Assembly: GCF_028368995.1 (NCBI RefSeq)
Contig: NZ_JAQNDL010000004.1
Span: 192,001 to 256,000 of the forward strand
Reading direction: 5' to 3'
DNA length: 64,000 bases
Source: Nannocystis bainbridge
GTDB lineage: Bacteria; Myxococcota_A; Polyangia; Nannocystales; Nannocystaceae
A program made the translations under genes and the position numbers. This document shows positions 1,207-54,916 of this stretch, one piece after another; the first letter of the stretch is position 1; each line of letters begins with the position of its first letter. The notes under the pieces were generated by a model. The model did not search any database, was not told the DNA's origin, and worked only from the letters and a program-made list of their open reading frames with translations.

Positions 1207-1275
1207 GGGTCATGTCCAGTCGGACATGTCTTTTTTGACATGTCCTGAGGGGCATTTCTTTTCGGACATGCGGCG
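1207..1275. repeat. 14-bp periodic palindromic repeat array, 5 units (CATG/CATT at 1211, 1225, 1239, 1253, 1267)
   Basis: gggtCATGtccagtcggaCATGtcttttttgaCATGtcctgaggggCATTtcttttcggaCATGcgg. The register is exactly 14 bp. The array lies between the convergent 3-prime ends of two lipoprotein genes. Confidence 0.85.
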
Positions 1276-2964
1276 TCACTGCCCGAGGAACCACGGGGTG
1301 GCGACGGCGGAGCGGCACTGCCAGTTGAAGCTGCGCATGTGCGGGACCTCGGCGTTGTCGCGGAAGCCGAGCACGAGGTCCTCGGCGGTCTGGCGCAGGG
1401 CGTCGTCGCCGGCGCCGTCGTGGTGATACGCCATGGCGACGACGTAGGCGCTCTCGCCCCAGTGCTCGTCGTAGTCGTCGACGGCGCCGTTGCCGTCGCC
1501 GACGCCCATCCAATAAAAAGGCTTGCCGTCGGGGTCGAGGCCGTCGCGGGCGATGACGCGGCCGAGCTTGACGATCGCGGCGCGGGCGGCGTCGGCCTGA
1601 GCGCCGGGCGAGTCGGTGGCGTACTGATCGAGGCCGTCGGCGAGGATGGCGCTGAGCCACGGCGAGCAGCCCCAGAAGCCGAAGTCCTCGTCGGCGGCGC
1701 CGTCGGTGTGGGCGAAGCAGCGGGCGTCGGGGTCGTCGTAGCCGGGCGGGTAGCTGGCCTGGATGTCGAGGTAGGCGGTGACGGCAGCGTCGGCGAGGTC
1801 GCGGAATTGCTGGGCCCGATCGTCGGAGACGTTCATGGCCCAGACGTGGGCGAGCAGGCCGAAGCCGGCGTGGCGCTCGGTCCAGAAGCCGTCGTCGCCG
1901 GCGTACGCGGGGTCCCACAGGTCGGCGAAGGCCTCGGCGACGTCCTCGGCGCTCTCGCGGAAGCGGTCGTCGCCGGTCATGAGGTAATGCAGGGCCAGGT
2001 TCTGCGAATAATAGTACTTGGCGTCTCCGGTCTTGCCGGGCACGCCGATGGTGGTATTCGGGCCCTGGCCGGCGAGGCCGTCGCGATAGATCGTGGTCTC
2101 GAGGTAGGCCGAGCGCAGGGTCGAGAGGTCGCCGCGGCGGGCGTGGCCGCGATAGTGGATGGTGCCGCGATCGTAGAGCCAGACGTCGGCGGAGCCCATG
2201 GCGCCGAGGAAGGCGTCGTGACCCCATTGATCGTGGTCGCAGGCGTCGGTCCAGGCCTGGGCAGGGGTGCCCGCGACGGCGGCGGCGGTGGCGAGCGGGC
2301 CGGCAAACCCGCTGGCGGTCAACCATTCGGCGGGCAGCAGGGCCCAGACGCGCGGGCCGGTGGCGTCGTCGACGAGGGTGTCGGCGACCGGGACGGGATC
2401 GAGGCTGCCTGCGGTCGGGGCGAGGTCGAGGGAGACCTCGAGGTCGGTCTCGCCGGCGAGCGAGAGGTCGAGCTGGATCTGCATGCTGCGCCAACTGCCG
2501 TCAGGGTGACGCGCCAGGCCGCGCAGGGCGGTCGCCAGCTCGGTGCCGGCGTGCCGGACCTGGACCCGGGTGTCGTCGGCGAGGACGCCGGGCGCGAGCG
2601 GGACGGCGAAGTTGATGCGCTGGTCGCCGCTGACGCCAGGCTGCGGGACGAGGTGGACGACGATCGTGGTGGCCTGCCCGCCGGTGGTGGTGTCGTCGGT
2701 GGTGGTGCTGTCGGTGGTGGTGACCGGGGCGTCGGTGGGATCGACGGTCGAGCTGGTGGTGGGATCGGGTAGATCGCCGGTGGTCGAGGCGGTCGGGTCG
2801 TCGGTGGCGGCGCCGGTCGGGGCGTTCGTGGTGGGTCCGGGATCGGTGGTGGCGTCGGTGCCGGTGCCGGTTTCGCTGGTGTCGCCGGGATCGCCGGGGC
2901 AGGCGGAACAGACGGTCATTGCTGCGACGAGGATGCCCATTGCAGGCAGGGAACGGACTGGCAT
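1276..2964 (-). CDS. secreted lipoprotein with Thr/Asp/Pro-rich linker and a large C-terminal domain of unknown function
   Basis: An internal ATG at 2964 gives MPVRSLPAMGILVAAMTVCSAC (signal plus lipobox), followed by a T/D/P-rich low-complexity linker and then a roughly 400-aa globular region rich in aromatic residues. The upstream N-terminal extension in the ORF track is Arg/Pro-rich and treated as artefact. Confidence 0.7.
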   Translation of the reverse strand: MPVRSLPAMGILVAAMTVCSACPGDPGDTSETGTGTDATTDPGPTTNAPTGAATDDPTASTTGDLPDPTTSSTVDPTDAPVTTTDSTTTDDTTTGGQATTIVVHLVPQPGVSGDQRINFAVPLAPGVLADDTRVQVRHAGTELATALRGLARHPDGSWRSMQIQLDLSLAGETDLEVSLDLAPTAGSLDPVPVADTLVDDATGPRVWALLPAEWLTASGFAGPLATAAAVAGTPAQAWTDACDHDQWGHDAFLGAMGSADVWLYDRGTIHYRGHARRGDLSTLRSAYLETTIYRDGLAGQGPNTTIGVPGKTGDAKYYYSQNLALHYLMTGDDRFRESAEDVAEAFADLWDPAYAGDDGFWTERHAGFGLLAHVWAMNVSDDRAQQFRDLADAAVTAYLDIQASYPPGYDDPDARCFAHTDGAADEDFGFWGCSPWLSAILADGLDQYATDSPGAQADAARAAIVKLGRVIARDGLDPDGKPFYWMGVGDGNGAVDDYDEHWGESAYVVAMAYHHDGAGDDALRQTAEDLVLGFRDNAEVPHMRSFNWQCRSAVATPWFLGQ

Positions 2965-3149
2965 GATTCGCCTCCGCGCGGCACCGTAGCCGATCATAGG
3001 ACGAGGCGCGCGGGGCCGCGGGCCCCCGAGGGCGGATGGGCGCGGCTGTGGCGAGGATGGGAGCGAGGTTGAGGGTCGAGGCGCCACCGAGCGATCATCA
3101 CCGCGCGAGCGGGAAGGCTCGCGCGGTCGCGTTGGCGAGCGGGAGGTTC

Positions 3150-3271
3150 GAGCCGCGCACGTCGGTGGGCGCGCGCTGGCGGCCGTGTTGGTGCGGGCGA
3201 GCGACCTCGACTACGAGGTCCTCGTGTTCGCCGAAGGGTTCGCGCACTTCCGGGGCCGGAGCGATCGGTAG
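3150..3271 (+). pseudogene. gene remnant: diverged duplicate of the 3-prime end of lipoprotein gene 666..1175
   Basis: The remnant translates to LAAVLVRASDLDYEVLVFAEGFAHF. This aligns with ELAAMFARASDLDYEVIVFPEGLGR at 1085..1175, and the DNA is near-identical over about 45 bp. There is no start codon or upstream body, so it is a terminal fragment only. Confidence 0.45.
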
Positions 3272-3282
3272 GCGTGGCTTTC

Positions 3283-3308
3283 AGGACATGTCCTTGGGGA
3301 CATGACTC
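3283..3308. repeat. 14-bp periodic palindromic repeat array, 2 units (CATG at 3287, 3301)
   Basis: aggaCATGtccttggggaCATGactc, lying between the gene remnant and the 3-prime end of the esterase gene. Confidence 0.75.
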
Positions 3309-3318
3309 AAAAGCACTG

Positions 3319-4650
3319 TCACAGCGGGACGACCGGGCTGACGACCGGGAAGTGCAGCACGAGGTCGTAGGCGAGGGCGGGGCTGAGGCGGGACCAGACG
3401 ACGCTGGAGAGCGGCCAGCGGGCGAAGGCGGGCCGGTAGGCGACGCCGAGGTTGCGCACGTGCTGCTCCCATTCGAACCACCGCGCGACCACGCTGTCGG
3501 CGGGGAGGCGGCGCAGGTCGAGCAGGTATGGGTCGCGCGGGCCGGCCAGCGTGGCCTCGAAGGTGCCGCGCGGCGGGGCGGGGACGCGGTACACGCCGAG
3601 CGGGTTGGCGAAGCCGGGCTCCTCGCTGCCGATCCGGCCGGCGCGGTAGGCGGCGAACGAGCCTGTCTGAAAGGTCATGTGCATGGGGACATACGCGGGT
3701 CCGAACCGGCGCCGCAGGTGCTCGCCCATGCTCGGCGGGCTGCGGCGGCCGTTGGGCAGCAGGGTGGTGCTGGCGGCCACGTGGCCGCTGTGGGCGACGA
3801 GCGCCAGGGTCTCGCCGGGGCGGGCCCGCTCGCGGAACCAGGCGACGTTGTCGGCCATGACGCGGTCGCGGTCGGTGGGCGCGGGGAAGCTGCCGAGCGC
3901 GCGATCGATGCTGGCGAGCAAGAGGTCGAGGCGGTGCACGGCTTCGCCCCAGGCGTCGGGGTCGTACGCGCGGGTGTAGGCGTCGCGGTGGGCGAGGAGG
4001 TGGGCGCGCTCGGCCGCGACGGCGGCGCGCAGGCGAGCGCCGTCGTCGGCCTGATGGTCGGCCCACGGGGCGCGCAGCAGGGCCAGCGCGGCCTCGGTCT
4101 GCGCGGCGTGGGGCGGATCGACGGCGCGCACGTAGGCGAGGACGTGCTCGCCGCAGCCGATGCTGCAGGACACGTCGAGGCCGCCGAGGCGGACCTGCCG
4201 CGCGGGCGGGAGGTCGCGGTTGTGGGCCCGGACCCACTCGAGCAATTCGTCGAGGTCGCGGGTGGCGACGACGTCGCTGCCGAGCTCGGGGCGCGCTCCG
4301 CCGCGCACGTAGGCGTCGAGCTGCGCGATCCATTGGTAGGAGGTCTCGAACAGGACGGTGAGCGGCTCGGGCCGGGCGGCGAGGCACTTCACGACGGCGA
4401 GCTGGGCGGCCCGCAGCTCGTGCACGCCGTGGCTGCTCTCGCCGAGGCCGAGGATGGCGCCGGGCGGGACGGCGTCGCAGACGGGGGCCATGGCGAGGCG
4501 GCCGTCAGCGTCGACGACAGGGACGGCGTGGTCGGCGATCCAGCCGGCGATCTCGGGCTGCACGGGTCGCCAGGGCCTGTCGGCGCCAGTCCACGGGGAG
4601 CACGCGAGCAGCAGCGGCAAGCACCCGGCGAGCAGGCGAGGCGAAGACAT
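3319..4650 (-). CDS. erythromycin esterase family lipoprotein (Ere-like)
   Basis: An internal ATG gives MSSPRLLAGCLPLLLAC (lipobox). The motif GLGESSHGVHEL resembles the GEATHGTHEF signature of the erythromycin esterase family (Pfam PF05139), and the length fits. Confidence 0.8.
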   Translation of the reverse strand: MSSPRLLAGCLPLLLACSPWTGADRPWRPVQPEIAGWIADHAVPVVDADGRLAMAPVCDAVPPGAILGLGESSHGVHELRAAQLAVVKCLAARPEPLTVLFETSYQWIAQLDAYVRGGARPELGSDVVATRDLDELLEWVRAHNRDLPPARQVRLGGLDVSCSIGCGEHVLAYVRAVDPPHAAQTEAALALLRAPWADHQADDGARLRAAVAAERAHLLAHRDAYTRAYDPDAWGEAVHRLDLLLASIDRALGSFPAPTDRDRVMADNVAWFRERARPGETLALVAHSGHVAASTTLLPNGRRSPPSMGEHLRRRFGPAYVPMHMTFQTGSFAAYRAGRIGSEEPGFANPLGVYRVPAPPRGTFEATLAGPRDPYLLDLRRLPADSVVARWFEWEQHVRNLGVAYRPAFARWPLSSVVWSRLSPALAYDLVLHFPVVSPVVPL

Positions 4651-4847: not shown

Positions 4848-5480
4848 ATGAAGCTCCACGGATTTTGGCGCAGCACGTCGACCTGGCGGGTGCGGATCGC
4901 TCTGGCGTACAAGAACCTGGCCCACGAGTATGTGCCAGTCGACCTGCTGGCGGGCGAGGGGGCGCAGAACTCGCTGGAGCACCGCCAGCTCAATCCGATG
5001 GCGCAGGTGCCGGTGCTCGAGCTCGAGCAGGGGCTCTACCTGACGCAGTCGATCGCGATCCTGGAGTACCTCGAGGAGCGGTGGCCGAAGCCGCCGCTGC
5101 TGCCGCGCGATCCGCTGGCGCGGGTGCGGGTGCGGCAATTGACGGAGGTGGTCAACGCGGGGATCCAGCCGCTGCAGAACACGGGGGTGGAGCGGCATGT
5201 GGCGTCGCTCGGGGCCGACCCCTCGGCGTGGATCCAACGCTTCGTCGGCCGGGGGCTGGCGGCGCTCGAGGCGATGACGCTGCCGCTGGCGGGGCGGTAC
5301 AGCGTCGGCGACGCGCTGACGTTCGCCGATCTGACGCTGGTGCCCGAGCTGGCGTTCGCCCGCCGGGTCGGGGTCGACCTGTCGCGCCTGCCGACGCTGC
5401 TGCGCGTCGAGGCCAACTGCGCGCAGCTCGACTGTTTTAAAAAGGCCCACGCGGACGCGCAGCCGGACGCGCCGCGCTGA
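4848..5480 (+). CDS. maiA: maleylacetoacetate isomerase (zeta-class glutathione S-transferase)
   Basis: The N-terminus MKLHGFWRSTSTWRVRIALAYKNL matches the canonical MKLYSYWRSSAAYRVRIALNLKGL start of MaiA/GSTZ. The GST N- and C-domain lengths fit. Confidence 0.85.
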   Translation: MKLHGFWRSTSTWRVRIALAYKNLAHEYVPVDLLAGEGAQNSLEHRQLNPMAQVPVLELEQGLYLTQSIAILEYLEERWPKPPLLPRDPLARVRVRQLTEVVNAGIQPLQNTGVERHVASLGADPSAWIQRFVGRGLAALEAMTLPLAGRYSVGDALTFADLTLVPELAFARRVGVDLSRLPTLLRVEANCAQLDCFKKAHADAQPDAPR

Positions 5481-5499: not shown

Positions 5500-5585
5500 A
5501 CGACATGCCCCGAGGGGCATGTCTCATGGAGAATGTCTGAACGGGCATGTCTGAACGGGCATGGTCTAAGAGACATGTCGTGAAG
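5500..5585. repeat. 14-bp periodic palindromic repeat array, 6 units (CATG/AATG at 5504, 5518, 5532, 5546, 5560, 5574)
   Basis: cgaCATGccccgaggggCATGtctcatggagaATGtctgaacgggCATGtctgaacgggCATGgtctaagagaCATGtcg, lying 3-prime of maiA. Confidence 0.85.
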
Positions 5586-6323: not shown

Positions 6324-7076
6324 TCATTCGCCGGCGGGCTTGGGGCGCAGCAACGGGGCCAGGCGCTCGCCCACGCACGAGCTGCGCAGGCGCGGCAGGA
6401 ACAGGCCCGGGCCGCTGGTGCGCAGGAGGGTCTGCGCGGTGGCTTCGGCCGCGTCGGGCCGGCCGTCGGCGCACAGCGCCAGCACGCGCAGGACCTCGCG
6501 TTCGTCGGCGAGCTGGCCGTGGGCGAAGCGGAGGGCGTGCTCGTCGAGGCGGGTCAGCGCGGCGGCTGGGGCGTCGCGCTGCAGGGCGGCCTGGGCCGCC
6601 TCGAGCAGGCGTCGCTCGGCGGCGGGATCGGGGGCGTCCTCGGGGGGCGCCGCGGAGGTGCGGCGCGGGGTCGGTCGGGTCGGTTGCGGTTCGGGCGGGG
6701 GGCTGACCGCGAGCGCGGGCGGCGGGGTCGAGGGCGCGATCGGGGCCGGCTCGCGCGGGGCTTCGATCGGGGTCACGGGGGTCGCGAGGACGGCCGGCTC
6801 GGGGCGGGTGAGCCAGCGGCCGCCGACGACGACGGCGCCGATCACCGCGGCGGCCGCGATCGTCTTGAGCCCAGCGGCCACGGCGGCCTTGCCGACGAGG
6901 GCCTCGGTCGCGTCGGCGAGGGCGGACGGATCGGGCACTTCGACGCCGCCGTCGTCGGGCCCCGCGGGCGGCGGCGCTTGCAGGCGCTGCCACACGCGCG
7001 CGAGCGCGTCGGGGTCGGCCGGGGCGCGGCGGGCCTGGCGGACGAGCCGCTGGATGTCCTCTTGTTCCTGGCTCAT
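6324..7076 (-). CDS. anti-sigma factor (single-pass membrane protein)
   Basis: MSQEQEDIQRLVRQ... with one transmembrane helix (AVIGAVVVGGRW) and a Pro-rich periplasmic part. The start ATG overlaps the sigma-factor stop as ATGA, which suggests translational coupling. Confidence 0.6.
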   Translation of the reverse strand: MSQEQEDIQRLVRQARRAPADPDALARVWQRLQAPPPAGPDDGGVEVPDPSALADATEALVGKAAVAAGLKTIAAAAVIGAVVVGGRWLTRPEPAVLATPVTPIEAPREPAPIAPSTPPPALAVSPPPEPQPTRPTPRRTSAAPPEDAPDPAAERRLLEAAQAALQRDAPAAALTRLDEHALRFAHGQLADEREVLRVLALCADGRPDAAEATAQTLLRTSGPGLFLPRLRSSCVGERLAPLLRPKPAGE

Positions 7077-7636
7077 CGAACATCCCTCCCGAGCAGCCGG
7101 CGCCGCGCGTGGGCTTTGGCGAACGCCTTCTTGGCCTCGCGCAGCCGCGAATAGACGGTGTTGACATTGACCTCGAGGATGGCGGCGATCTGCGGCGCCG
7201 ACAGCTCCTCGACCTCGTGCAGCACGAACACCTCGCGCTTGGCCTCGTCGAGCTCGGCCAGCAAGGCGTCGAGCATGCGCAGGGCCTCGGCGTCGAGCAG
7301 CGCCTGGTCGGGCCCGCGCTCGCCGCTCGGCCACTCGACGGTCGCGGGCTCGAAGCTGTTGCGGCGGGCCCGGTCGCGGAACTTGCGGGCGATCCGCACG
7401 GCGATGGCGTACAGCCAGGTCCGGATCGCCGCCCGGTGCTCGAACTCCGGCAGGCGCCGCTGGACGACGATGAACAGCTCGTGCAGCGCGTCCTCGACGG
7501 CCGCCGGCTGGACGCCGAGGCGGCCCAGCGCGCGCCACAGCTCGCGCGCGTGGGCGCGGTAGAGCGCGGCGACGGCCTCGCGGTGCGGCGCGCCCGGGAC
7601 GAGCGGGGCGGCGGTCAGCGGGGGAGCGGCGGGCAT
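7073..7636 (-). CDS. ECF RNA polymerase sigma factor
   Basis: Sigma-70 region 2 (HELFIVVQRRLPEFE) and region 4 (REVFVLHEVEELSAPQIAAILEVNVNTVYSRLREAKKAF) are present. Confidence 0.9.
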   Translation of the reverse strand: MPAAPPLTAAPLVPGAPHREAVAALYRAHARELWRALGRLGVQPAAVEDALHELFIVVQRRLPEFEHRAAIRTWLYAIAVRIARKFRDRARRNSFEPATVEWPSGERGPDQALLDAEALRMLDALLAELDEAKREVFVLHEVEELSAPQIAAILEVNVNTVYSRLREAKKAFAKAHARRRLLGRDVR

Positions 7637-7669: not shown

Positions 7670-9055
7670 TCAGTTTTTCTCGCGGCCGAGGTGCACCTCG
7701 AGGCCGACCGCGGCGCGGAAGCCGACAGCGCCGATCCGGAACAGCTCGGGCAGCGGGTCGACCGCGAACGATTCGCGGGTGATCGGCACGACCAGGGCGA
7801 CGCTGCCGGCCAGCGCCAGCCGCCGGGTGAACCGCCACACGACGCCGGGTTGCAGCTCGGCCGCGGCCCACAGGGTCCGGACGGTGCGCGCGCCGGCGAA
7901 CCCGAGCCCGCGCACCACGAGCCCGCCGAGCTCCACGCCGGCGCACAGCGGCAGCTCGACGAGGCCGGCGCCCGTGCGGCCGGGTCGGCGCAGGCGCGGG
8001 GTCGGGCACACGCGCAGCGCGACGGCGCCGACCTGCGCGCGGGCGCCCACGCCGGGCGGCTCGGCGTAGTCGCGCCGGCGCCCCGGCCACCAGCCGGCGG
8101 TGAGCTCGAGGCGCACGCCGGGGAGGCGCAGGGCGTAGCCGCCCAGCAGGCCGGGGCCGATGCCCGGCAGCGCGCCGACGTCGAGGCCGAGCGCGAGCCG
8201 GAGGGCGTGGCCGACCGGGAGGCGCGGCGGCGCGGGCCCCAGCGGGCCGTCGGGCGGCTCGATCGCGCCCGGAGCGGGGGCGGGTTCGCGCGTCGGGTCG
8301 GCGGGGACGAGGTCGGGCCGCGCGGAAGCGGGCCGGGCCGGCGCCGGGTCGGGTTGCAGGGAGGCGGGGCGCTGACTGGGGGGCGCGGAGGGCTGGGCGG
8401 GCTGCGGGCCCGTGGGGGGGACCGGGGCGGGCTGGGCGGCAGGCTGGGCGGGCTGCGGAGGGGCGTGGCCAGGCTGGGTGGCAGGCTGGGCGGGCTGCGG
8501 AGGCGCGGGGACCTGGGCGGGCTGCGGAGGCGCGGGGACCTGGGCGGGTGCGGGAGGCGGGCCTGGCGGGGCGGGTGGCGGCGAGGTCGGGCTGGGCGGG
8601 ACCGGAGCGGGACCGGCGGGCGGGGACCCCGACAGGGCCGGCTCGATGGCGATCGCCAGCGCCAGGGCCCCGGAGCGCGCGAGCTCTTCGCAGTCGCGGC
8701 CGCGCAGGGTCTTCTCGCCGCGGGCGCCGTCGCGGGTGATGACGAGGCGCAGGCGCCAGCCGGCGCCGTCGCGCGCGAGCACGCCCTCGCCGGTGAGCCC
8801 GGGGTAGCCGGCGGGGTCGGCCGCGGTCCCGAGGTGTCCCGAGAGCCAGGTGCGGAACTGGTCGCGCTGCGGGCACTGCGGCGGGGCGCTCCAGTGCAAG
8901 GTGAGCTGCGCCGGGGCGGCGGGGGCCTGCAGGCTCGCGGAGGTCGGCGGGGACCACAGCGCCGCCACCAAGGCCGCGCAGGCGCACGGGCCGGGGCGCC
9001 GTCGGCCGGGCGGGCGGAGGCCGGCGCTGCGGCGGTGCGGGCGAGCAGCGAGCAC
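7670..9055 (-). CDS. hypothetical secreted protein with Pro-rich tandem repeats, first gene of the sigma/anti-sigma operon
   Basis: An N-terminal hydrophobic segment is followed by PAPPQPAQV tandem repeats, also visible as DNA tandem repeats at about 8400..8560. The C-terminal domain shows alternating hydrophobic residues and is possibly a beta-barrel. The start is uncertain. Confidence 0.5.
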   Translation of the reverse strand: MLAARPHRRSAGLRPPGRRRPGPCACAALVAALWSPPTSASLQAPAAPAQLTLHWSAPPQCPQRDQFRTWLSGHLGTAADPAGYPGLTGEGVLARDGAGWRLRLVITRDGARGEKTLRGRDCEELARSGALALAIAIEPALSGSPPAGPAPVPPSPTSPPPAPPGPPPAPAQVPAPPQPAQVPAPPQPAQPATQPGHAPPQPAQPAAQPAPVPPTGPQPAQPSAPPSQRPASLQPDPAPARPASARPDLVPADPTREPAPAPGAIEPPDGPLGPAPPRLPVGHALRLALGLDVGALPGIGPGLLGGYALRLPGVRLELTAGWWPGRRRDYAEPPGVGARAQVGAVALRVCPTPRLRRPGRTGAGLVELPLCAGVELGGLVVRGLGFAGARTVRTLWAAAELQPGVVWRFTRRLALAGSVALVVPITRESFAVDPLPELFRIGAVGFRAAVGLEVHLGREKN

Positions 9056-16049: not shown

Positions 16050-16349
16050 GATGGAATCCTCGGTTGCGCTGACCTTGAACCATTTCCTCGCGCGAACCAC
16101 CCAATGGCGTGAGCCGGTCCCGGCGGCGGCGAAGGAGCCACGGGTCGCGCACCTGGCCTCGCTGGCCGCGGCGGTCCGGCGGAGGGAGCGCGCGAAACGG
16201 GCTTCGCCGCGGCCGATGCCGGCAGGGCGAATGCAACGGTCCCGGCGGTCGAACGCCCGCGGTCGAGCTGGACCCGGGGCGCGGCGCTGCTACGTTGAAA
16301 GGCTCTCGGCGCGAAGCAGGCAGCCGGCGGGCCGACCACCGGGGACGGC

Positions 16350-16670
16350 AGGCCGGACGCCGGGCTCGGTGCCCGCATTCGGGAGTTGCACGCGCGACAG
16401 GCCCGGGACGCCGGGCCCGGTGCCCGCATTCGGGAGTTGCACGCGCGACAGGCCCGGGCTGCCGGGCCCCGTGCCCGCATTCGGGAGTTGCACGCGACAG
16501 GCCCGGGACGCCGGGCCCGGTGCCCGCATTCGGGAGTTGCACGCACGACAGGCCCGGGCTGCCGGGCCCCGTGCCCGCATTCGGGAGTTGCACGCGACAG
16601 GCCCGGGACGCCGGGCCCGGTGCCCGCATTCGGGAGTTGCACGCACGACAGGCCCGGGCTGCCAGGCCCG
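16350..16670. repeat. tandem repeat, about 51-bp unit, about 6 copies, each with an internal GCCCGG-GACG-CCGGGC hairpin
   Basis: The motif gtgcccgcattcgggagttgcacgcgcgacaggcccgggacgccgggcccg recurs with starts near 16369, 16420, 16471, 16520, 16571 and 16620, with alternating 51- and 49-bp variants. The array is non-coding and lies upstream of the paralog-2 gene. Confidence 0.85.
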
Positions 16671-16788
16671 GCGGGGGGCGAACATGCCAGACGGCAGACG
16701 CGCGAGAGTGCCGCGGCGAGCGGCGCCCCTGCGGGACGCTGCGCTCGCCGCGGAGTGGGGGTGCGTTCGGGCGGTGCGCGGCGACGGC

Positions 16789-26478: not shown

Positions 26479-26532
26479 CGGACATGTTCGCATGGGCATG
26501 TTCGATGGGACATGACCCGAGGGACCTGTCCC
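26479..26532. repeat. 14-bp periodic palindromic repeat array, 4 units (CATG/CCTG at 26483, 26497, 26511, 26525)
   Basis: cggaCATGttcgcatgggCATGttcgatgggaCATGacccgagggaCCTGtccc, lying between the convergent 3-prime ends of the SMI1 gene and the dehydrogenase gene. Confidence 0.85.
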
Positions 26533-34930: not shown

Positions 34931-35008
34931 AGGATATGTCTGCATGGACATGTCCTTGGGGACATTGTCCGCGCGATCCGGGCGGACCTGTCTCGGGTGA
35001 CATGATCG
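34931..35008. repeat. 14-bp periodic palindromic repeat array, 5 units with one 24-bp step (TATG 34935, CATG 34949, CATT 34963, CCTG 34987, CATG 35001)
   Basis: ggatATGtctgcatggaCATGtccttggggaCATTgtccgcgcgatccgggcggaCCTGtctcgggtgaCATGatcg. Confidence 0.8.
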
Positions 35009-35199
35009 GTGCACGAGCGGTCGCGGATGCTCGTGAACGCTCCGCTCGCGGCGTTCGTCGATGGCGACGGAGACGGGCGCAGCGGGGGCCGCGGGGGCGT
35101 TGCGCGATCTCGAGGGGCGGCGGCGGGCCGCGGCGGTGCGGTACCCTGGGAGGCGGAAGAGACGTCGGTGTCTCGACGATCGCGTCAGGAGATTCGACG

Positions 35200-35796
35200 A
35201 TGGTCCGGTTCGATCGCTGCGCAGCTCTCGTGTCGTGCTTCTTCGCCGCCGCGCTGGTCGGCGCCTCGCCGGCGTCCGCGGGCAAGTCGCCCAGGGCGGG
35301 CGGCCAGGACCCGAAGGGCGCCCCTGCGGCGCCGGCGGAGAAGGCCCCGCCTCCGAACGAGACTTCGAAGGATCGCGACAGCCGGGCGGCGCCGGTGGAC
35401 AAGCCCGCCGAGCCGCCGAAGACCGACGCGCCCGAGGACGGGCTCGCAGCGAGCTCCAGATCCGCGGGTGAGGCCGCGAAGGGCGGGCCTGCTGCGAGCT
35501 CCAGATCGCAGGGCTCATGCGCCGGACGGGGTGGGCTCATGAGCGCCGGATTACGGCCGCGAAGGGGCAGGGCTTGCACCGCGAGAGCGCGGGGACCCTT
35601 CGACGTCGGCGGCCGTACCCGGCCGGCCCGCAGGGGGACTCCCGGGCATCGGGTTACGAAAGCGACAGCGCGCGTGGCGTCGGACCCGCGGTTCCTGGGA
35701 CAACGGACCTCGGTCCGTCGCCTCGGGGCGTCCCGGTCCTCGATCGCGCCCTTGCGAAGGCTCGTTGCAGCGCCCCCGCGCCTCGGCCTATCTTGA
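35200..35796 (+). CDS. possible secreted low-complexity protein
   Basis: MVRFDRCAALVSCFFAAALVGASPASAG is signal-like, followed by a Pro/Ala/Lys-rich region. The C-terminal half of the ORF is Arg-rich and may be artefact, and the true stop is uncertain. Confidence 0.35.
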   Translation: MVRFDRCAALVSCFFAAALVGASPASAGKSPRAGGQDPKGAPAAPAEKAPPPNETSKDRDSRAAPVDKPAEPPKTDAPEDGLAASSRSAGEAAKGGPAASSRSQGSCAGRGGLMSAGLRPRRGRACTARARGPFDVGGRTRPARRGTPGHRVTKATARVASDPRFLGQRTSVRRLGASRSSIAPLRRLVAAPPRLGLS

Positions 35797-35800
35797 AATC

Positions 35801-37838: not shown

Positions 37839-37944
37839 GGGACATGTCCGGGAGGTCATATCCTGTGATTGTGCGAGGCGCCCGTCGGCGGCGCCTCGCC
37901 GAGTGACTTCGGATTCGTTGTACATGTCTGAAGGGACATGGATG
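37839..37944. repeat. two short 14-bp periodic palindromic repeat arrays (CATG/CATA at 37843, 37857; CATG at 37923, 37937)
   Basis: gggaCATGtccgggaggtCATAtcc ... tgtaCATGtctgaagggaCATGgatg, lying between the convergent 3-prime ends of the lipoprotein and SARP genes. Confidence 0.75.
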
Positions 37945-46855: not shown

Positions 46856-48751
46856 CTATTGCATGAAGCAGTAGATCGGCTTCTTCCACGTGCACGATTG
46901 CTGGCAGACGAACTGCGTCCACAGGCCGTCTGCTTTATTAAACTGGCCGCCGCCGACGATGCCGGCGGCGTTGCTGGTCCAGTTCTGGCAATCGGTGAAG
47001 TTGGCGAACATCGTGCCGTCGATGATCGTGTTGGTGAAGGTGAGCTGGGAGATGCCGCCGCAGACGTTGGCGTCGGCGCCGGGCGGGGTCTTGAGCTCGG
47101 ACAGGTTGATGGCGGCGGCGTGGTTGCCGTCGACGAGGTCGTTCCAGTTGTTGGCGATGAGGACGCCGTCGCGGCGGGCGTAGGGGATCGTGGGCTTGGT
47201 GAAGCGGGTGACGGGGGTGCCGGTGTCGTCGCTGAGCCAGGCGCGGTAGGTGCCGGGGAGGCCGGCGGCCTGGGCGGCGGCCTGGCACTTCATGTCGGCG
47301 CCGAGGAGGCCGCCGAGGTTGCCGTCGAAGCCCTGGCTGGTGGCGAACACGACCTTGTGGGCCTTGCACTTCGAGCTGCAGCCATCACCCTCGGCGAGGT
47401 TGCCGTCCTCGCAGTTCTCGCCGGCGGCGCTGTTGATGACGCCGTCGTTGCAGGCGGCGAAGGTGCAGTCGATGTCGCAGGTGGCCGACTGACCGCCGTG
47501 ATCGCAGGCCTCGCCGGCGGCCTCGTTGAGGACCTCGTCGCCGCAGACGACGGCGGTGCAGTCGTCGTCGCAGGTGGCGGTCTCGAAGCCGTCGTCGCAG
47601 GTCTCGCCGGCGGCAGGGTTGACGGTCTTGTCGCCGCAGACGGCGAGGGTGCAGTCGGCGTCGCAGGTGGGGCTGGGGCCGCCGGTGTCGCAAGCCTCGC
47701 CGGCGGCGGGGTTGGGGTGGGCGTCGCCGCACTGGGACGGGGTGCAGTCGCTGTCGCAGGTGGCGCTGTTGCCAGCGGTGTCGCAAGCCTCGACGCCGGC
47801 GAGCACGAAGCCGTCGCCGCACACGGCGAGCTTGCACAGACCGGTGCAGGCGTCATCGTCGAGGTCGTTGCCGTCGTCGCACTCCTCGTCCATCTGCAGG
47901 ATGCCGTCGCCGCAGGTGGCGAGGGCGCAGTCGTTGGTGCAGGCGTCGTCGTTGATGTCGTTGCCGTCGTCGCAGGCCTCGAGCACGGCGTGCACGATGC
48001 CGTCCCCACATTCGGCAGGGATGCAGCCGACCAGGCAGTCGTCATTGTCGAGGTCGTTGCCGTCGTCGCAAGCCTCGACGCCGAGCTGCACGATGCCGTC
48101 GCCGCACACGGCGGTGATGCAGGCGTTGGTGCAGTCGTCGCCGTCCTCGAGGTTGCCGTCGTCACACTCCTCGGGGACCTGGACGATGCTGTCGCCGCAG
48201 ATGGGCAGGCGACAGCCCGCCGAGCAGCCGTCATCCTCGATGTTGTTGCCGTCGTCGCACTCCTCGCCCAAAAGCTCGTGGAGGACGCCGTCGCCGCAGG
48301 TGGCGGCGATGCAGGCGTTGGAGCAGGCGTTGAGATCGACCAGGTCGCCGTCGTCGCACTGCTCGCCCGGATCGAGCTGGCCGTCGCCGCAGATCGGCGG
48401 TTCGCCGGTGGTGCTGTCGGTGTCCGTGGTGGTGGTCGAGGTCGTCGAGGTGGTGGTCGAGGTCGTGGTGTCGGTGGTGTCGGTGACGGCGGTGTCGGTG
48501 CCCGGATCGGTGGTGGGCCCGGCGGTGGTGCCAGTCTCGGTGCCGCCCATGGTGCTGGTGGAGGTGGTGGGCAGGCTGGTGGTGGGCAGGTCAGGCCCGC
48601 TGGTGCTGCCAGCCGTGGTGGTGCCGTCGGTGTCGGTGGTGCCACCGGCAGAGTCGGTGGTGACGGCGGTGTCGGTGCGACCGCATGCGCCGAGCGCCGC
48701 GGCGAGCACGACGAGTCCCAGCGAACGACAAGCGAAGCTGTAAGCGAGCAT
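46856..48751 (-). CDS. lipoprotein with Myxococcus-type cysteine-rich repeats and DUF1554-like C-terminal domain
   Basis: MLAYSFACRSLGLVVLAAALGACG lipobox and a Thr-rich linker. About ten repeats of C(G/N)DG...(E/A)CD(D/T)GN...C...C follow (myxo_disulf_rpt-like). The C-terminal KVVFATSQGFDGNLGG...YCF domain is as in DUF1554 partners. Confidence 0.8.
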   Translation of the reverse strand: MLAYSFACRSLGLVVLAAALGACGRTDTAVTTDSAGGTTDTDGTTTAGSTSGPDLPTTSLPTTSTSTMGGTETGTTAGPTTDPGTDTAVTDTTDTTTSTTTSTTSTTTTDTDSTTGEPPICGDGQLDPGEQCDDGDLVDLNACSNACIAATCGDGVLHELLGEECDDGNNIEDDGCSAGCRLPICGDSIVQVPEECDDGNLEDGDDCTNACITAVCGDGIVQLGVEACDDGNDLDNDDCLVGCIPAECGDGIVHAVLEACDDGNDINDDACTNDCALATCGDGILQMDEECDDGNDLDDDACTGLCKLAVCGDGFVLAGVEACDTAGNSATCDSDCTPSQCGDAHPNPAAGEACDTGGPSPTCDADCTLAVCGDKTVNPAAGETCDDGFETATCDDDCTAVVCGDEVLNEAAGEACDHGGQSATCDIDCTFAACNDGVINSAAGENCEDGNLAEGDGCSSKCKAHKVVFATSQGFDGNLGGLLGADMKCQAAAQAAGLPGTYRAWLSDDTGTPVTRFTKPTIPYARRDGVLIANNWNDLVDGNHAAAINLSELKTPPGADANVCGGISQLTFTNTIIDGTMFANFTDCQNWTSNAAGIVGGGQFNKADGLWTQFVCQQSCTWKKPIYCFMQ

Positions 48752-49021
48752 GCCCGCCAGAGTACGAGAGTCGCGGGAAGGCCGGCAACTCGCGCAGGCG
48801 GAGACGTATGCGGGCGAGCGGGTGCGAAGATGGCCCACCCGCAGGCGACCGGGGCGGGAAACTCCGGGCGCCGGTGAGCCAGGTGTTACGCGGACGTCAT
48901 GTCGGCGGCGAAGGGTCGGCGCGCGCGCGACGGCGGACGGGCGACCGCGCGTCGCGTGTGCGAAAGCCGAGGTCGGGTGGATGCAGGCAGGGAGCCCGCA
49001 GGAGCGCGGACAGGAGGCCGA

Positions 49022-51982: not shown

Positions 51983-52792
51983 CTACCGATCCTCGAGGTC
52001 GCCGTTGCCGTACGGCTGCTCGATGTCGTGCACGCCGTCGAAGCTGATATCCATCAGCACGACATTCCCGCGCCGAACTGCGAGGTTGTCCCGCCCGTCG
52101 CCATCCCAGTCGCCGACCAGATATTCGTCTTCCGCGTTGCCGTTGCCGAACCCCTGATCGAAGTCGTGCACGCCGTCGAAGTTGAAGTCCATCAGCACGT
52201 GGTTCCCGCGCCGAACTGCGAGGTTGTCCCGCCCGTCGCCATCCCAGTCGCCGACCAGATATTCGTCTTCGCTGACGCCGTTACCGTACCCCTGGTCGAA
52301 GTCGTGCACGCCGTCGAAGTTGAAGTCCATCAGCACGTGGTTCCCGCGCCGCACCGCCAGGTTATCCCGCCCGTCGCCGTCCCAGTCGCCGACGAGATAC
52401 TCATCCTCCGCGCTGCCGTCGCCGTACCCCTGGTCGAGGTCGTGCACGCCGTCGAAGTTGAAGTCCATCAGCACGTGATTCCCGCGCCGCACAGCCAGGT
52501 TGTCTCGCCCGTCGCCGTCCCAGTCGCCGACGAGATACTCATCCTCCGCGCTGCCGTCGCCGTACCCCTGGTCGAGGTCGTGCACACCGTCGAAGTTGAA
52601 GTCCATCAGCACGTGATTCCCGCGTCGCACCGCCAAGTTGTCCCGCCCATCGCCGTCCCAGTCGCCGACCTTGTAGCGGGTCTTGTCGCGTCGCACGCGC
52701 CCGTCGGAGTCAGCAGCAGCGTCGGTGGCTGTGAAGCCCATGCCGCTCGTCAGCGACAGGGAGAACAAAACGGTCAGGGTACTTTTCAACAA
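51983..52792 (-). CDS. secreted protein with five near-identical about 48-aa FG-GAP/VCBS-like repeats
   Basis: Signal peptide, then five copies of YLVGDWDGDGRDNLAVRRGNHVLMDFNFDGVHDxDQGYGDGSAEDE. The DNA copies are nearly identical. Confidence 0.75.
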   Translation of the reverse strand: MLKSTLTVLFSLSLTSGMGFTATDAAADSDGRVRRDKTRYKVGDWDGDGRDNLAVRRGNHVLMDFNFDGVHDLDQGYGDGSAEDEYLVGDWDGDGRDNLAVRRGNHVLMDFNFDGVHDLDQGYGDGSAEDEYLVGDWDGDGRDNLAVRRGNHVLMDFNFDGVHDFDQGYGNGVSEDEYLVGDWDGDGRDNLAVRRGNHVLMDFNFDGVHDFDQGFGNGNAEDEYLVGDWDGDGRDNLAVRRGNVVLMDISFDGVHDIEQPYGNGDLEDR

Positions 52793-53199
52793 CGTCTACA
52801 CCTCTGGTCCGGGAGAGTCTTATCGAGCCTTCCAGTGCGTCGAGCGAGCGCCCGGACGACCCGTGTTTGCAACGACAGCGCCGTTCGAATCCACACGCCG
52901 GACATCGCCCGATGCCGTGAACCCTGGCCAGTTCAGGCCGCATCGCTCGACCGAGCGCTCGGCCGAGCAGGCGATTCAGGCCGCATCGCTCGACCGAGCG
53001 CTCTGCCGAGCAGGCGATCATAGCGACGGATGATTCGCGGGTCGCGCCTGGCCGCAACGGCAGGCGACCGAGGTCAGTGGAGGCAAATCCTTGGTCTCAC
53101 TGTCAGTGGCACGCTTGCGCAGTCGCGCCCCCCCTGCACCGACCATGCGGCGGCGCGACGGTGGGCGCCCGCTCGAGCGCGACTTGCGAGCGTAATCTG

Positions 53200-53301: not shown

Positions 53302-53324
53302 CTCAGGCGGGGCCACGACGTTCT

Positions 53325-53530
53325 TCTCGGGCGGGCGAGGGGCGGCGCAGTGGGACGCAGGGAGGGGCCCCATGCCTCACGCGCAAGCGCGGGATGCAAC
53401 GCCGGACAGGCCCCGTCGCACCTCCGCGCCGAGCATGTGGCATGGCAGGTCTCCCGTCGCGACGGGACCCGCTGCGCCGCCCCTCGCCCGCCCGCTCGAT
53501 AATCTTCGCGCCCCGCCTCCCACGGACGCG
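53325..53530. repeat. inverted-repeat element (MITE-like): arms 53325..53390 and 53431..53530 in opposite orientation
   Basis: The right arm is the reverse complement of a sequence sharing gggcgggcgaggggcggcgcag... with the left arm. A third copy is at 49450..49545. No coding capacity. Confidence 0.6.
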
Positions 53531-53869
53531 CGATGACATTCGCGCGACGACCGCGAGGCGAACCCAGCAGCTCGCCAGCAAGACATGCGGTGCCCCGCTC
53601 GACGATCCTCGTGTCCGCCTGCGAGCCGTACCCCGACCCTTGAAGGCCGCGTGCGCGGCGGGCCACGAGTCGCCGGGTCCCGGGCGGGGTGACGGAGCTC
53701 CGGGGAGTGCAGTGACCGGCGCGGCAGGATCAATTGCGGGGCGCGAGGATTCGCCCGGGATGGCCCCGCGGCGGCAGCTGCGAGTTTGCTCGGGGCGGGC
53801 AATTGAACGTCGTCCGTCGCCCACCAGGAACTCGAGAGGTGGACCAGTCGCGTGGGCCGGCTTGATTTC

Positions 53870-54217
53870 ATGACGCGAACCTTGACCGTATTTGTTGCTT
53901 CGCTGGGCCTCACGGCCTGCTCCACGAACGACGAGACCGCCTCGGCGACGGAGACGTCCGCCGACACGATGGCGACGGTCACCGGCGACGGGCCGGGCAC
54001 CGAAGGAGGCTCGGAGCCGACGGCGGGCGGGCCGACCACGGAGAGCGGTGGCTCGACGGCGGGGGACAGCACCGCCACCACCGACGACGAAGGGATTCCC
54101 ACCGGGACCTCGGTCGCTCTCGCACCCTTGGCGGACGCGGGAGAGCAACATGGCTGGAAGGACATGTCGCCCTCGTCGCCGTGGGTCGGCTTGCGCGGCG
54201 GCTTCAGGGCTTCTTGA
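53870..54217 (+). CDS. small Thr/Gly/Ser-rich lipoprotein
   Basis: MTRTLTVFVASLGLTACSTNDE lipobox at the internal ATG. The ORF-track GTG start 18 nt upstream is less likely. Confidence 0.45.
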   Translation: MTRTLTVFVASLGLTACSTNDETASATETSADTMATVTGDGPGTEGGSEPTAGGPTTESGGSTAGDSTATTDDEGIPTGTSVALAPLADAGEQHGWKDMSPSSPWVGLRGGFRAS

Positions 54218-54782
54218 CCGTGACCCCGCGAGAGATCAGCCGCAAGAGGGCGTTGGGCTCGATGTTGCGCGGCGTCGCGGTGAGCTGCCGGAGCGCTGGC
54301 AAGCTCTCGAGCGCGGCGGCGTCGGTGCAGCGGCCCGTGAGGATCAGTTCGGCCAGCTTCGGGTGGCCGCGCAACGGCCCGAGGTCGAGGTCCTGGGGGC
54401 GATAGCCGTGGCCGTAGAGCGAGAGCGAGGTGAGCGCGCCGAGCCGTTCGATGCCCGCCAGCGAGTGCAGGTCGTAGGGACACGCGTCGTCGCTGCCGAC
54501 CTCGAACCCGAGGGCGCGATCGATGAGCCTGTAGATGTCGTTGCTGTCGTCGAAGTCGAGCTCGGTGATGCGGGCGACCTCGGCGGGGTCGAGCGGGAGG
54601 GCGTGTACGCGGGCGATCGCCGCGTGGGCGCGAGTGTCTTCGTCGCCGTCAGGGTCGAGGTCCGCCAGCGCCCGGACGATCGTTTCGACCTCGATCGCGC
54701 CGGCGCGGAGCAGGGCGTCGACGACGGCGAGGTGCAAGCCAGGGTCGGGGAATGGGCCGGCGGACTCCGTTACCTCGGTCAT
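54204..54782 (-). CDS. hypothetical protein, possibly leucine-rich-repeat-like
   Basis: MTEVTESAGPFPDPGLHLAVVDALLRAG...LHSLAGIERLGALTSLSLYGHGYRPQDLDLGPLRGHPKLAELIL. The N-terminal 33 aa of the ORF track translate the repeat array and are excluded. Confidence 0.5.
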   Translation of the reverse strand: MTEVTESAGPFPDPGLHLAVVDALLRAGAIEVETIVRALADLDPDGDEDTRAHAAIARVHALPLDPAEVARITELDFDDSNDIYRLIDRALGFEVGSDDACPYDLHSLAGIERLGALTSLSLYGHGYRPQDLDLGPLRGHPKLAELILTGRCTDAAALESLPALRQLTATPRNIEPNALLRLISRGVTVKKP

Positions 54783-54846
54783 GGCCGCGATCGCATCACA
54801 TCGGCCGGCGACGGGCAACCCGGCGCCCACGCGGGCTCCGCTCGAT

Positions 54847-54916
54847 GGAGCATGCCTGATCGGACATGTCCCCGGGGACATGCCCCATCGAGCATGTCCC
54901 CGCGGGCATGCCCCTC
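54847..54916. repeat. 14-bp periodic palindromic repeat array, 5 units (CATG at 54851, 54865, 54879, 54893, 54907)
   Basis: ggagCATGcctgatcggaCATGtccccggggaCATGccccatcgagCATGtccccgcgggCATGcccc, lying between two same-strand genes. Confidence 0.85.

Follow-up and report, generated by a model that had tools for sequence, protein, structure and literature searches.

The question raised by this locus is what the tandem arrays of a short palindromic unit that recur along it are and what they might do. The window (i.e., the whole 64,000-nucleotide stretch analyzed here, positions 192,001 to 256,000 of contig NZ_JAQNDL010000004.1 of Nannocystis bainbridge) carries a repeat family that is real, apparently undescribed, and found only in the genus Nannocystis. 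Its unit, aaGGRCATGYCCtt (14 bp), is repeated head to tail, with two to seven units per array and approximately four free bases between cores. All the loci listed in the initial annotation were present when the window was checked, and two further arrays that it had missed were found (54146..54169 and a weak one at 3659..3696). The arrays in the window are as follows.

1208..1273: five units (cores at 1208, 1222, 1236, 1250, and 1264), filling the 100-bp gap 1176-1275 between convergent stops at 1175 (+) and 1276 (-)
3284..3307: two units, 12 nt beyond where the erythromycin-esterase gene stops (3319, - strand)
3659..3696: weak degenerate array of three units within the erythromycin-esterase CDS (residues 346-358, AYVPMHMTFQTGS)
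5501..5580: six units, 21 nt beyond where a GST gene stops (5480, +) and upstream of the next + gene
26480..26531: four units, in the convergent gap 26444-26548, which is flanked by a stop at 26443 (+) and by that of the alcohol dehydrogenase (ADH) gene at 26549 (-)
34932..34969: three units, following the csbD gene (34594-34794, +) at a distance of approximately 140 nt
34984..35007: two units, shifted by 10 nt from the register of the array at 34932..34969
37840..37863: two units, 15 nt past a stop at 37825 (+), in the convergent gap 37826-37976
37920..37943: two units, also in the gap 37826-37976, 34 nt before the stop at 37977 (-)
54146..54169: two units, 35 nt downstream of the stop of a DUF6892 gene (54204, -)
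54848..54913: five units, 7 nt beyond where a 1666-aa TPR gene stops (54920, -)

The gene context first given for these loci was essentially right, with three convergent gaps (1176-1275, 26444-26548, and 37826-37976) and the others between same-strand genes. The break in register that it implied by bracketing one core (34987) is likewise there, while the hairpin that it quoted as 1221..1248 ends at 1245. A GC-rich hairpin unrelated to the family lies at approximately 37872-37900, between the arrays 37840..37863 and 37920..37943. The window's other convergent gaps contain unique GC-rich hairpins in place of arrays.

A strictly phased family specific to Nannocystis

The pattern CATG-N10-CATG occurred 14 times in the window (expected, 0.42), and GGRCATGYCC with at most one mismatch occurred 29 times (expected, 11.7); none of 100 shuffled sequences reached either count. 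Spacings between CATG pairs in the window peaked only at 14, 28, 42, and 56 bp. The initial annotation had staked its claim on the motif being commoner than in shuffled sequence and on the register being kept outside the window. In approximately 80 loci from at least six Nannocystis genomes, 266 arrays were found, compared with approximately 1.8 in shuffled sequence. Over 697 kb of Nannocystis DNA, the numbers of pairs at 14, 28, 42, and 56 bp were 355, 188, 118, and 51, respectively, above a background of approximately 10. The phasing was strict even among units with no need to pair. The density is very high (approximately one array per 4 to 8 kb); by extrapolation, each genome would hold on the order of a thousand arrays or more.

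The family is confined to Nannocystis. When 185,579 species genomes were searched with a two-unit pattern, approximately 66 of the 80 matches listed were from Nannocystis, and those in other taxa were single ordinary terminator hairpins. Arrays were present in a deep-branching Nannocystis metagenome-assembled genome (MAG; L098), and none was seen within 21.7 kb of a Nannocystaceae outgroup. The remark that the family was not recognized was fair: searches of Rfam and the literature returned no described counterpart of the 14-bp repeat.

Orthologous arrays hold their position between species, while units are gained and lost. Their cores are 84% identical and their spacers 58% identical; unit number and spacers turn over, and the array was lost in one lineage. 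For example, the ADH stop is followed by an array in N. punicea and N. pusilla too, despite a different downstream neighbor, and this array is missing in L097. In species pairs with 91 to 96% identical DNA, every array in an aligned region had counterpart sequence in the other genome; three had no called array at the counterpart site, and no clean insertion or empty-site polymorphism was seen. Slippage or duplication was evident from perfect 14-bp copies in L098 and from 71-bp higher-order copies.

Pairing between units, core conservation, and genomic placement

Each core is complementary to its neighbors, so that adjacent units can fold into a 10-bp stem capped by a 4-nt loop and longer arrays can form tandem or nested hairpins, with the same structures on either strand. 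Neighboring units covary so as to base-pair together. The R and Y positions covaried between neighbors, with odds ratios of 1.9 (p = 0.004) and 2.4 (p = 1e-4), and anti-covaried within a unit (odds ratio, 0.54); a permutation test of the pairing gave a z of 4.9. In the covariation tool's shuffle control, 1 of 500 shuffles reached the observed percentage paired and covariation score, and slid registers all scored below the true one. Among orthologues, 7 of 12 double changes kept the pair, compared with 6 of 33 in control pairings. On average, 7.2 of 10 positions formed Watson-Crick pairs and 67.5% of cells were paired, which is a modest complementarity. The excess of G-T over A-C mismatches on the sense strand (120 vs 100) was not significant (p = 0.2), and no strand bias was seen in the spacers. 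Hairpins in RNA, in single-stranded DNA, or in cruciforms would fit these results equally well.

The array RNAs folded far better than shuffled sequences (z, -2.3 to -6.3). The array at 1208..1273, for which TRF reported a period of 28, gave z values of -2.6 and -4.2 for its two strands; the folds include the 1221-1245 hairpin. Nested hairpins were obtained for 5501..5580 (z = -6.3) and for 54848..54913, which folded into one long hairpin (-57.7 kcal/mol; z = -5.9). Many two-unit arrays have a stem extended by their flanks, such as GCTTTTGAG/CTGAAAGC in the fold of 3284..3307 and AATCACGG/CCTGTGATT at 37840..37863.

Pairing alone does not explain the near-invariant center of the core. In units picked by register only, and not by sequence, CATG was conserved at 93 to 98%; the commonest unit was the asymmetric GGACATGCCC. 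Of 514 two-unit 24-mers, 499 were distinct, with neither a master copy nor a burst of identical copies among them. Conservation of this kind, alongside free spacers and the lack of a master copy, would call for a sequence-specific reader, whether a protein or an enzyme, and we infer that such a factor also reads the units. Neither a conserved flanking tetranucleotide nor a target duplication was seen.

The arrays with two perfect units were found regardless of context and, according to gene calls that for most loci came from a crude codon-usage caller made for this analysis, 58 lay in convergent gaps, 17 in same-strand gaps, 2 within genes, and none in divergent (i.e., promoter-only) gaps. Thus, 75% of them lay between convergent genes, with convergent gaps making up 110 of the 502 intergenic regions (22%). 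When the gaps carrying the match used for fetching each locus were left out, arrays occupied 22 of 43 gaps between convergent genes, 36 of 266 between same-strand genes, and 9 of 73 between divergent genes. Where the flanking genes shared a strand, the array lay a median of 34 nt from the upstream stop and 179 nt from the next start. Stems with Watson-Crick pairs at 9 or more of their 10 positions were found in 69% of convergent arrays, 24% of same-strand arrays, and 0 to 12% of arrays elsewhere; the best-preserved arrays lay in short convergent-gene gaps or just past the stop codon of the upstream gene. The flanking genes are functionally unrelated. The earlier statement placing every array outside supported CDSs was wrong for the family as a whole, as a few arrays are in frame within real genes (at L053, in a 560-aa acetate-CoA ligase family protein, and at L019, L097, and L098).

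Likeness to known elements and possible roles

The family most invites comparison with the REP/BIMEs of Escherichia coli, Pseudomonas, and others, which are likewise short high-copy palindromic hairpin units in tandem clusters, mostly extragenic, concentrated at the 3' ends of genes and in convergent gaps, lineage specific, and vertically inherited; their proposed roles are mRNA 3'-end stabilization, termination, and protein binding. Unlike in REP/BIMEs, each stem arm in Nannocystis is itself a palindrome (GGRCATGYCC), so that units have no orientation and any neighbor can pair, 4-nt linkers keep the units in strict 14-bp phase, neither a conserved GTAG-type tetranucleotide nor a master copy exists, and the density is very high. 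REPINs (inverted REP pairs mobilized by a single-copy RAYT) share the two-unit hairpin module and long persistence within one lineage, but REPIN populations consist of an abundant master sequence and a mutant cloud, whereas the Nannocystis modules are nearly all unique and their spacers are just 4 nt and free to vary. Bidirectional intrinsic terminators also place a symmetric GC-rich hairpin between convergent stop codons, and the two-unit module has ordinary terminator-stem geometry (the chance matches in other phyla are such terminators). The Nannocystis arrays differ in having no A-tract or U-tract, in reusing one sequence family genome-wide rather than a unique stem per site, and in being multi-unit. 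MetJ metbox operators and similar tandem palindromic operators comprise two to five short units at fixed phasing; however, metboxes lie in the promoters of one regulon, whereas the Nannocystis arrays shun promoter-only gaps and border unrelated genes, and their covariation suggests that a single strand pairs with itself. The palindromic elements of Rickettsia resemble the intragenic arrays in lying in frame within protein-coding genes, in tolerant linker regions, but they are single elements of 100 to 150 bp, and intragenic copies are a minority in Nannocystis.

The reading to which we give about an even chance is that the arrays are a Nannocystis-specific, REP/BIME-like hairpin family acting as two-way transcript-end elements, together with a factor that reads the CATG core. 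A REP-like repeat, bidirectional terminator, or RNA-stability element was one of the two readings in the initial annotation, and it is the best fit to the placement, covariation, and folding. The part that did not stand is a classical intrinsic terminator: no U-tract follows the arrays (just the first 2 to 3 nt are T-enriched), and canonical hairpin-plus-T terminators exist in this genome (e.g., after csbD). Counting against any terminator are the arrays in divergent gaps or genes, where one would be harmful or pointless. Those same arrays favor a somewhat unlikely alternative, in which the repeats are selfish or neutral and have no host function. A mobilizing or copying process, driven perhaps by a REP-associated tyrosine transposase (RAYT) that works on hairpins of single-stranded DNA or by a different enzyme, would seed GGRCATGYCC units at many sites, slippage would expand them, and arrays would survive and stay long only where harmless, mainly in convergent-gene gaps. 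The enrichment in such gaps is expected of a tolerated selfish element as well. Slippage, the turnover of units and spacers, and the loss in one lineage also agree with this alternative; the hairpin covariation fits an HUH-type enzyme (the nuclease class of RAYT) on single-stranded DNA as well as it fits RNA, and the conserved core would be the recognition site of the mobilizing enzyme. Such an origin is harder to reconcile with the diversity of the 24-mers, the lack of clean empty-site polymorphisms, of a conserved flanking tetranucleotide, and of target duplications, and the concentration of the best-preserved arrays in convergent gaps, which neutral decay does not predict. Moreover, cores were kept while spacers diverged at the same sites, which argues for maintenance after insertion.

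The other initial reading, dimer sites on duplex DNA at 14-bp pitch, appears improbable to us. A Nannocystis-specific dimeric protein would bind each core and polymerize along the array, and the result would be a roadblock to converging polymerases or an insulator between them, a topological or nucleoid-organizing site, or a gyrase- or IHF-type site of the kind reported in E. coli BIMEs. The 10-bp palindrome with its conserved center and the phasing kept where pairing is not needed suit such a platform, the free spacers and the lack of a master copy point to selection on the core sequence itself, and placement between convergent genes suits an insulator or supercoiling-relief site. A protein on duplex DNA, however, predicts none of the anti-correlation of half-sites at R/Y, the asymmetry of the commonest unit, the complementarity between neighbors, or the compensatory changes between orthologues, and helix-turn-helix dimers seldom have half-site centers only 5 bp apart. 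As a sole explanation, this reading is further contradicted by the avoidance of promoter-only gaps and by the unrelated flanking genes; its intuition about the core, that a sequence-specific reader is required, held. We regard clusters of methylation or restriction targets for epigenetic marking as very unlikely. RCATGY is a known restriction/methylation specificity (an NspI-type site), but CATG was not depleted in the window (218 sites vs approximately 163 expected from base composition), and the 14-bp phasing, the GG/CC flanks, the covariation between units, and the 3'-end placement would be left unexplained.

If the arrays are two-way transcript-end elements, the hairpin in the transcript would stop or pause RNA polymerase arriving from either side, insulate the neighboring gene, and shield the mRNA 3' end. 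The CATG core would be read by a binding protein or by the enzyme responsible for spreading the units. Arrays grow and shrink through slippage or duplication, and their sites are kept across species.

The 14-bp arrays in the window and in the genus

Window arrays were called by a chaining scan together with a position matrix that we derived from phased units. Each array consists of 2 to 7 tandem 14-bp units (i.e., a self-complementary 10-bp core, GGRCATGYCC, and a spacer of four free bases), with no preference for even unit numbers. All of the loci named in the initial annotation were found in the window sequence, but its list lacked two further arrays.

Tandem 14-bp arrays in the window (window positions)
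1208-1273, array of 5 units
3284-3307, array of 2 units
3659-3696, weak array of 3 units, inside a gene; missing from the initial list
5501-5580, array of 6 units
26480-26531, array of 4 units
34932-34969, array of 3 units
34984-35007, array of 2 units, its register shifted by 10 nt relative to the array at 34932-34969
37840-37863, array of 2 units
37920-37943, array of 2 units
54146-54169, array of 2 units; missing from the initial list
54848-54913, array of 5 units

The motif was well above chance in the window (G+C content, 72%). CATG-N10-CATG occurred 14 times versus 0.42 expected, a count reached in none of 100 shuffles, and GGRCATGYCC with at most one mismatch occurred 29 times versus 11.7 expected. 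Spacings between CATG pairs peaked at 14, 28, 42, and 56 bp only, and Tandem Repeats Finder reported a period of 14 or 28 at four arrays (1211-1270, 5515-5563, 26480-26514, and 54851-54914). The 14-bp register was maintained beyond the window: 697 kb of Nannocystis DNA contained 355, 188, 118, and 51 CATG pairs at 14, 28, 42, and 56 bp, respectively, versus a background of about 10. Arrays of at least two units numbered 266, compared with 1.8 in dinucleotide shuffles, at a density of about one per 4 to 8 kb. A chance origin was ruled out even for the two-unit arrays (146 observed versus 1.6 in shuffles), and the short 4-nt spacers ruled out a CRISPR-like reading. In mechanical ORF lists, the ATG within CATG cores gave rise to false starts of long ORFs (e.g., 34936..35796 and 54866..59971), a practical trap for gene callers in Nannocystis.

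Other tandem repeats of the window were a 51/100-bp repeat at 16345-16671 (6.3 or 3.2 copies; 90 to 95% matches), for which the overlapping ORF had no Pfam match; 93/186-bp repeats at 47402-48358 encoding DUF4215 cysteine-rich repeats in a minus-strand gene (46856-48838), with paralogues of this type in four other Nannocystis loci (L018, L040, L051, and L062); and a 138-bp repeat at 52001-52670 (4.9 copies; 91% matches) adjoining two copies of a 43-bp repeat (52932-53018), the latter causing a spurious sub-threshold Rfam match to mir-341.

A search for GGRCATGYCC-N4-GGRCATGYCC covered 185,579 species, each represented by a single genome. About 66 of the 80 loci among the matches listed were from Nannocystis (N. 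exedens, N. pusilla, N. punicea, N. radixulma, strain RBIL2, and several metagenome-assembled genomes [MAGs]). The other loci among the matches listed were singletons from unrelated phyla and, on inspection, mostly ordinary terminators, each a hairpin followed by a T-run. Arrays were present in the MAG of a deep-branching Nannocystis sp. (L098; its acetate-CoA ligase family protein shares 58% identity with the query from N. pusilla, L053) and were absent from 21.7 kb of a Nannocystaceae outgroup. Viral contigs yielded just four isolated two-unit matches, giving no link to phages. Searching the window against Rfam 15 gave no match at gathering thresholds and, at E values of 1 or less, two unrelated chance matches, neither overlapping an array; no tRNA was found in the window. 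The array family was not described in the literature found on Nannocystis repeats, intergenic palindromes, the core sequence, or RAYT/REPIN (REP-associated tyrosine transposase/inverted REP pair) systems in Myxococcota, where matches to the core sequence were primers or p53 sites. Within the libraries available to us, the family is undescribed.

Unit anatomy and pairing between neighboring units

To avoid selecting units by sequence, we derived a matrix from 131 units chosen solely for lying between two strong units. In these units, the central C, A, T, and G were conserved at 98, 93, 95, and 95%, respectively, and the flanking GG and CC at 70 to 79% and 69 to 80%. The third position (R) was A in 47% and G in 38% of the units, and the eighth (Y) was T in 47% and C in 41%. 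The four spacer bases were near background with mild A/T enrichment. No foot tetranucleotide of the GTAG/CTAC type was present in the flank and spacer matrices, which showed weak A/T enrichment only. The commonest unit was asymmetric, GGACATGCCC (equivalently GGGCATGTCC), rather than a perfect palindrome. Of 514 two-unit 24-mers, 499 were distinct, and the top count at unrelated sites was 3, ruling out a master copy or recent burst. The arrays grow by slippage or duplication, for which there is direct evidence in a run of 14-bp copies that are 97% identical (7400-7448 of the deep-branching MAG) and in 71-bp higher-order tandem copies carrying 3-unit arrays at two other Nannocystis loci (L032, 7711-7990; L015, 7240-7420).

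Two neighboring units can form a 10-bp stem with a 4-nt loop, and several results indicate that they do pair. Position 3 was complementary to position 8 of the next unit above expectation (odds ratio, 1.9; P = 0.004), as was the mirror pair (odds ratio, 2.4; P = 1e-4), while the R and Y positions within one unit were anti-correlated (odds ratio, 0.54; P = 0.007). Direct identity between neighboring units was uncorrelated, and the covariation had the same direction in most genomes with enough data. When partners were permuted, Watson-Crick complementarity gave a z score of 4.9 versus 2.3 for identity. In a structure test on 150 random adjacent pairs, an arrangement of 14 pairs and a 4-nt loop exceeded 499 of 500 column shuffles in percentage paired and covariation score, and it outscored every slid register. 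Positions at which both bases had changed between orthologous arrays kept the pair in 7 of 12 cases, versus 6 of 33 in control pairings; compensatory examples include L048/L070 (A-T to G-C and T-A to C-G) and L012/L069. In silico folding of the window arrays, as proposed in the initial annotation, gave RNA z scores from -2.3 to -6.3, with longer arrays folding into one nested hairpin. By four independent lines of evidence (covariation, permuted partners, the structure test, and double changes between orthologues), neighboring units do pair, with modest effect sizes. None of this would be expected if a protein read each core as a symmetric duplex site.

Stems are often extended by their flanks (e.g., at 37832-37871, 26474-26516, and 3277-3316 of the window and in locus L057), with significant flank pairing for 2-unit arrays only (z = 2.7); no nested pairing of outer spacers was seen in 4-unit arrays. 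Spacers had no strand bias relative to transcription, being equally frequent as reverse complements, and no bias toward special tetraloops (UUCG or GNRA). G-U tolerance on the sense strand, taken as an RNA-versus-DNA test, showed a trend that was not significant (94 versus 70 and 120 versus 100).

Placement at gene ends and conservation between genomes

Gene context in the Nannocystis loci carrying the two-unit pattern (L005 to L094) was taken from our own caller, based on codon usage and GC3, which is crude and merges or over-extends some ORFs; ORFs sometimes run through intergenic arrays, as at 3199-3250 of L048, which is a convergent gap. Given that the loci were fetched for a perfect two-unit match, a criterion blind to gene context, the context of the perfect arrays constitutes an unbiased sample. 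The arrays had been described as lying between convergent gene ends or same-strand genes, and this was true of the perfect arrays (58 convergent, 17 same-strand, and 0 divergent) except for 2 that were intragenic; 7 further perfect arrays were at locus edges. Convergent gaps made up only 110 of 502 gaps (22%) and 17% of the intergenic bases. With the fetch gaps excluded, arrays occupied 22 of 43 convergent, 36 of 266 same-strand, and 9 of 73 divergent gaps in the other loci, and 3 of 10, 5 of 27, and 0 of 10, respectively, in the window. Same-strand arrays were a median of 34 nt from the upstream stop codon versus 179 nt from the next start. A stem in which 9 or more of the 10 pairs are Watson-Crick was found in 69% of convergent, 24% of same-strand, 12% of intragenic, and 0% of divergent arrays. 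Separate gene calls for four further sequences (L095 to L098) placed 4 arrays in convergent gaps, 6 near the stop codon between same-strand genes, 4 in divergent gaps, and 3 within genes; the weaker two-unit arrays are thus spread over a wider range of contexts.

The claim that no array lies inside a supported CDS did not hold for the family as a whole, since some are in genes. One example is a 5-unit array in an N. pusilla locus (L053, 5133-5198), which lies in a continuous GC3-supported frame; its translation, ESMSSGTGPKGHVSEGMSEEASP, falls within a linker between domains of a 560-amino-acid acetate-CoA ligase family protein (NCBI annotation). The array-encoded peptide is kept in Nannocystis orthologues, with a frameshift across the segment in one from N. 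pusilla (P0127); the linker of more distant homologues is shorter and unrelated. In another locus (L019), three arrays (5275-5312, 6612-6635, and 7787-7838) are translated in frame within linkers encoded by a single kinase/AAA/TPR ORF. The intragenic arrays are degenerate.

Window genes beside arrays are unrelated to one another (among them erythromycin esterase, GST, zinc alcohol dehydrogenase [ADH], csbD, a BTAD/AAA regulator, a DUF6892 gene, and giant TPR proteins). With flanking genes unrelated and promoter-only gaps avoided, a transcription-factor regulon was ruled out.

The compared genome pairs were 83 to 96% identical at the DNA level. As regards conservation at orthologous positions, all arrays in aligned regions of the 91 to 96% pairs had counterpart sequence, but three lacked a called array there; in an 83 to 87% pair (L031/L050), two arrays just beyond the aligned block had no called array in the other genome. 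Between in-register orthologous arrays, cores were 84% and spacers 58% identical, compared with about 70% and 28% for unrelated units. Unit number and arrangement differed between species (L025/L057, 3 units versus a split, extended arrangement; L015/L086, 5+3 units versus 7 as called). The window ADH is 91 to 92% identical to its Nannocystis orthologues, and the array after its stop codon is common to the window, N. punicea, and N. pusilla despite a different gene on the far side; a fourth genome (L097) has no array there and a co-directional gene 37 bp on. Over 26549-34830, the window runs collinear with a contig of N. pusilla (86 to 91% DNA identity), which, with the ADH identities, places it in a Nannocystis chromosome. 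Gene order relative to N. punicea (L095) or N. pusilla (L096) breaks exactly at two array-bearing gaps (26444-26548 and approximately 34800-35100), where the arrays may be rearrangement points or the match may be coincidental.

Because CATG is strongly conserved while spacers are free and no master copy exists, pairing alone is not what is maintained. This pattern would mean that something reads the unit sequence.

Relation to known elements and possible roles

Among known systems, the arrays are closest to repetitive extragenic palindromes and their clusters (REP/BIME), with every tested feature shared bar the foot tetranucleotide. They form palindromic stem-loops (10-bp stem, 4-nt loop); occur clustered, dispersed, in high copy, and mostly outside genes, with a minority inside; are restricted to Nannocystis among the matches inspected; and are enriched at 3' ends and in convergent gaps (58 of 77 perfect arrays). 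They lack the conserved GTAG/CTAC-type foot and, unlike REPINs, a master sequence with many identical copies. MetJ-like operator arrays likewise have tandem palindromic units in fixed phasing, but such operators lie in promoters of a coherent regulon and have two-fold symmetry in each unit. Here, none of the 77 perfect arrays lies in a divergent gap, the flanking genes are unrelated, and R and Y anti-covary within the unit. The combination of a lineage-specific dispersed palindrome, covariation, 3'-end and convergent enrichment, persistence, and the absence of regulon logic thus places the arrays nearest REP/BIME elements. We file them as REP-like hairpin repeats with unusual self-complementary arms, strict 14-bp pitch, and very high density.

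In function, the arrays are closest to shared bidirectional terminator hairpins. As in intrinsic terminators, a GC-rich hairpin directly follows the stop codon(s), but the classical tail was ruled out, with neither a T-run (U-tract) downstream nor an A-run upstream; T frequency 3' of arrays was 0.29 to 0.38 at the first 2 to 3 nt only and then background, and a terminator scan of window positions 20001-40000 did not flag the arrays there. A canonical hairpin and T-run directly after csbD (approximately 34822-34870) is conserved in N. pusilla (L096, approximately 2290-2340, reverse strand), and so classical intrinsic terminators coexist with the arrays. Unique, perfect GC-rich hairpins occur at 18669-18710 and 24206-24270 in array-free convergent gaps (18661-18810 and 24192-24272, the latter with z = -2.95), and another occurs at 37872-37900, between the two arrays of 37840-37943. 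Their presence in other convergent gaps of the window suggests that the arrays fill the same niche.

This shared niche and the REP/BIME-like combination favor a two-way transcript-end element, a reading to which we give about an even chance. An array would then act as a pause or termination site, as an insulator, and as protection of the mRNA 3' end. Against it are the missing U-tract, the canonical terminators present in the genome, the modest average pairing, the equally good fit of the data to RNA and DNA hairpins, and the expectation that a tolerated selfish element would likewise accumulate between convergent genes. That the arrays are selfish or neutral seems rather unlikely to us: weak arrays are scattered, some copies lie in frame in genes, and slippage occurs, all in support of this reading, but identical copies are absent and the cores have been maintained after insertion. 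A pure duplex-DNA platform for a protein seems improbable; it would account for the conserved palindrome and the phasing but not for the covariation. Of the two readings offered initially, the REP-like or bidirectional transcript-end hairpin best fits placement and covariation, while its classical-terminator form fails for want of a U-tract and a polymerizing dimer alone fails on the covariation. The transcript-end, selfish, and platform readings are not mutually exclusive.

More speculatively, and with the probability against it, the arrays might belong to a Nannocystis-specific system with two parts, of which they would be the nucleic acid. A predicted dedicated protein would recognize the GGRCATGYCC duplex (as an extruded or transcribed hairpin stem, or as B-DNA) and assemble along the 14-bp units, so that the terminator or insulator between converging transcription units would depend on the protein and act strictly in both directions. 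If true, termination or insulation would proceed without a U-tract, through a single recognition sequence used across the whole genome.

In practical terms, the arrays can serve to mark the genus and supply VNTR-like polymorphism. They widen the range of REP-like elements by a design in which the arms are self-complementary, the phasing is strictly 14 bp, a master copy is lacking, and some copies lie in frame within genes, and they raise the question of which protein or enzyme recognizes GGRCATGYCC. Little is understood of how transcription units end in very GC-rich bacteria, with their few U-tracts, or of how convergent genes avoid interference. Nannocystis, a genus studied for its natural products and large genomes, uses one short sequence again and again, perhaps thousands of times in each genome and preferentially at converging genes, with signs of selection on pairing and on the sequence itself. 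This makes the arrays a compact and testable way into both problems in this genus.
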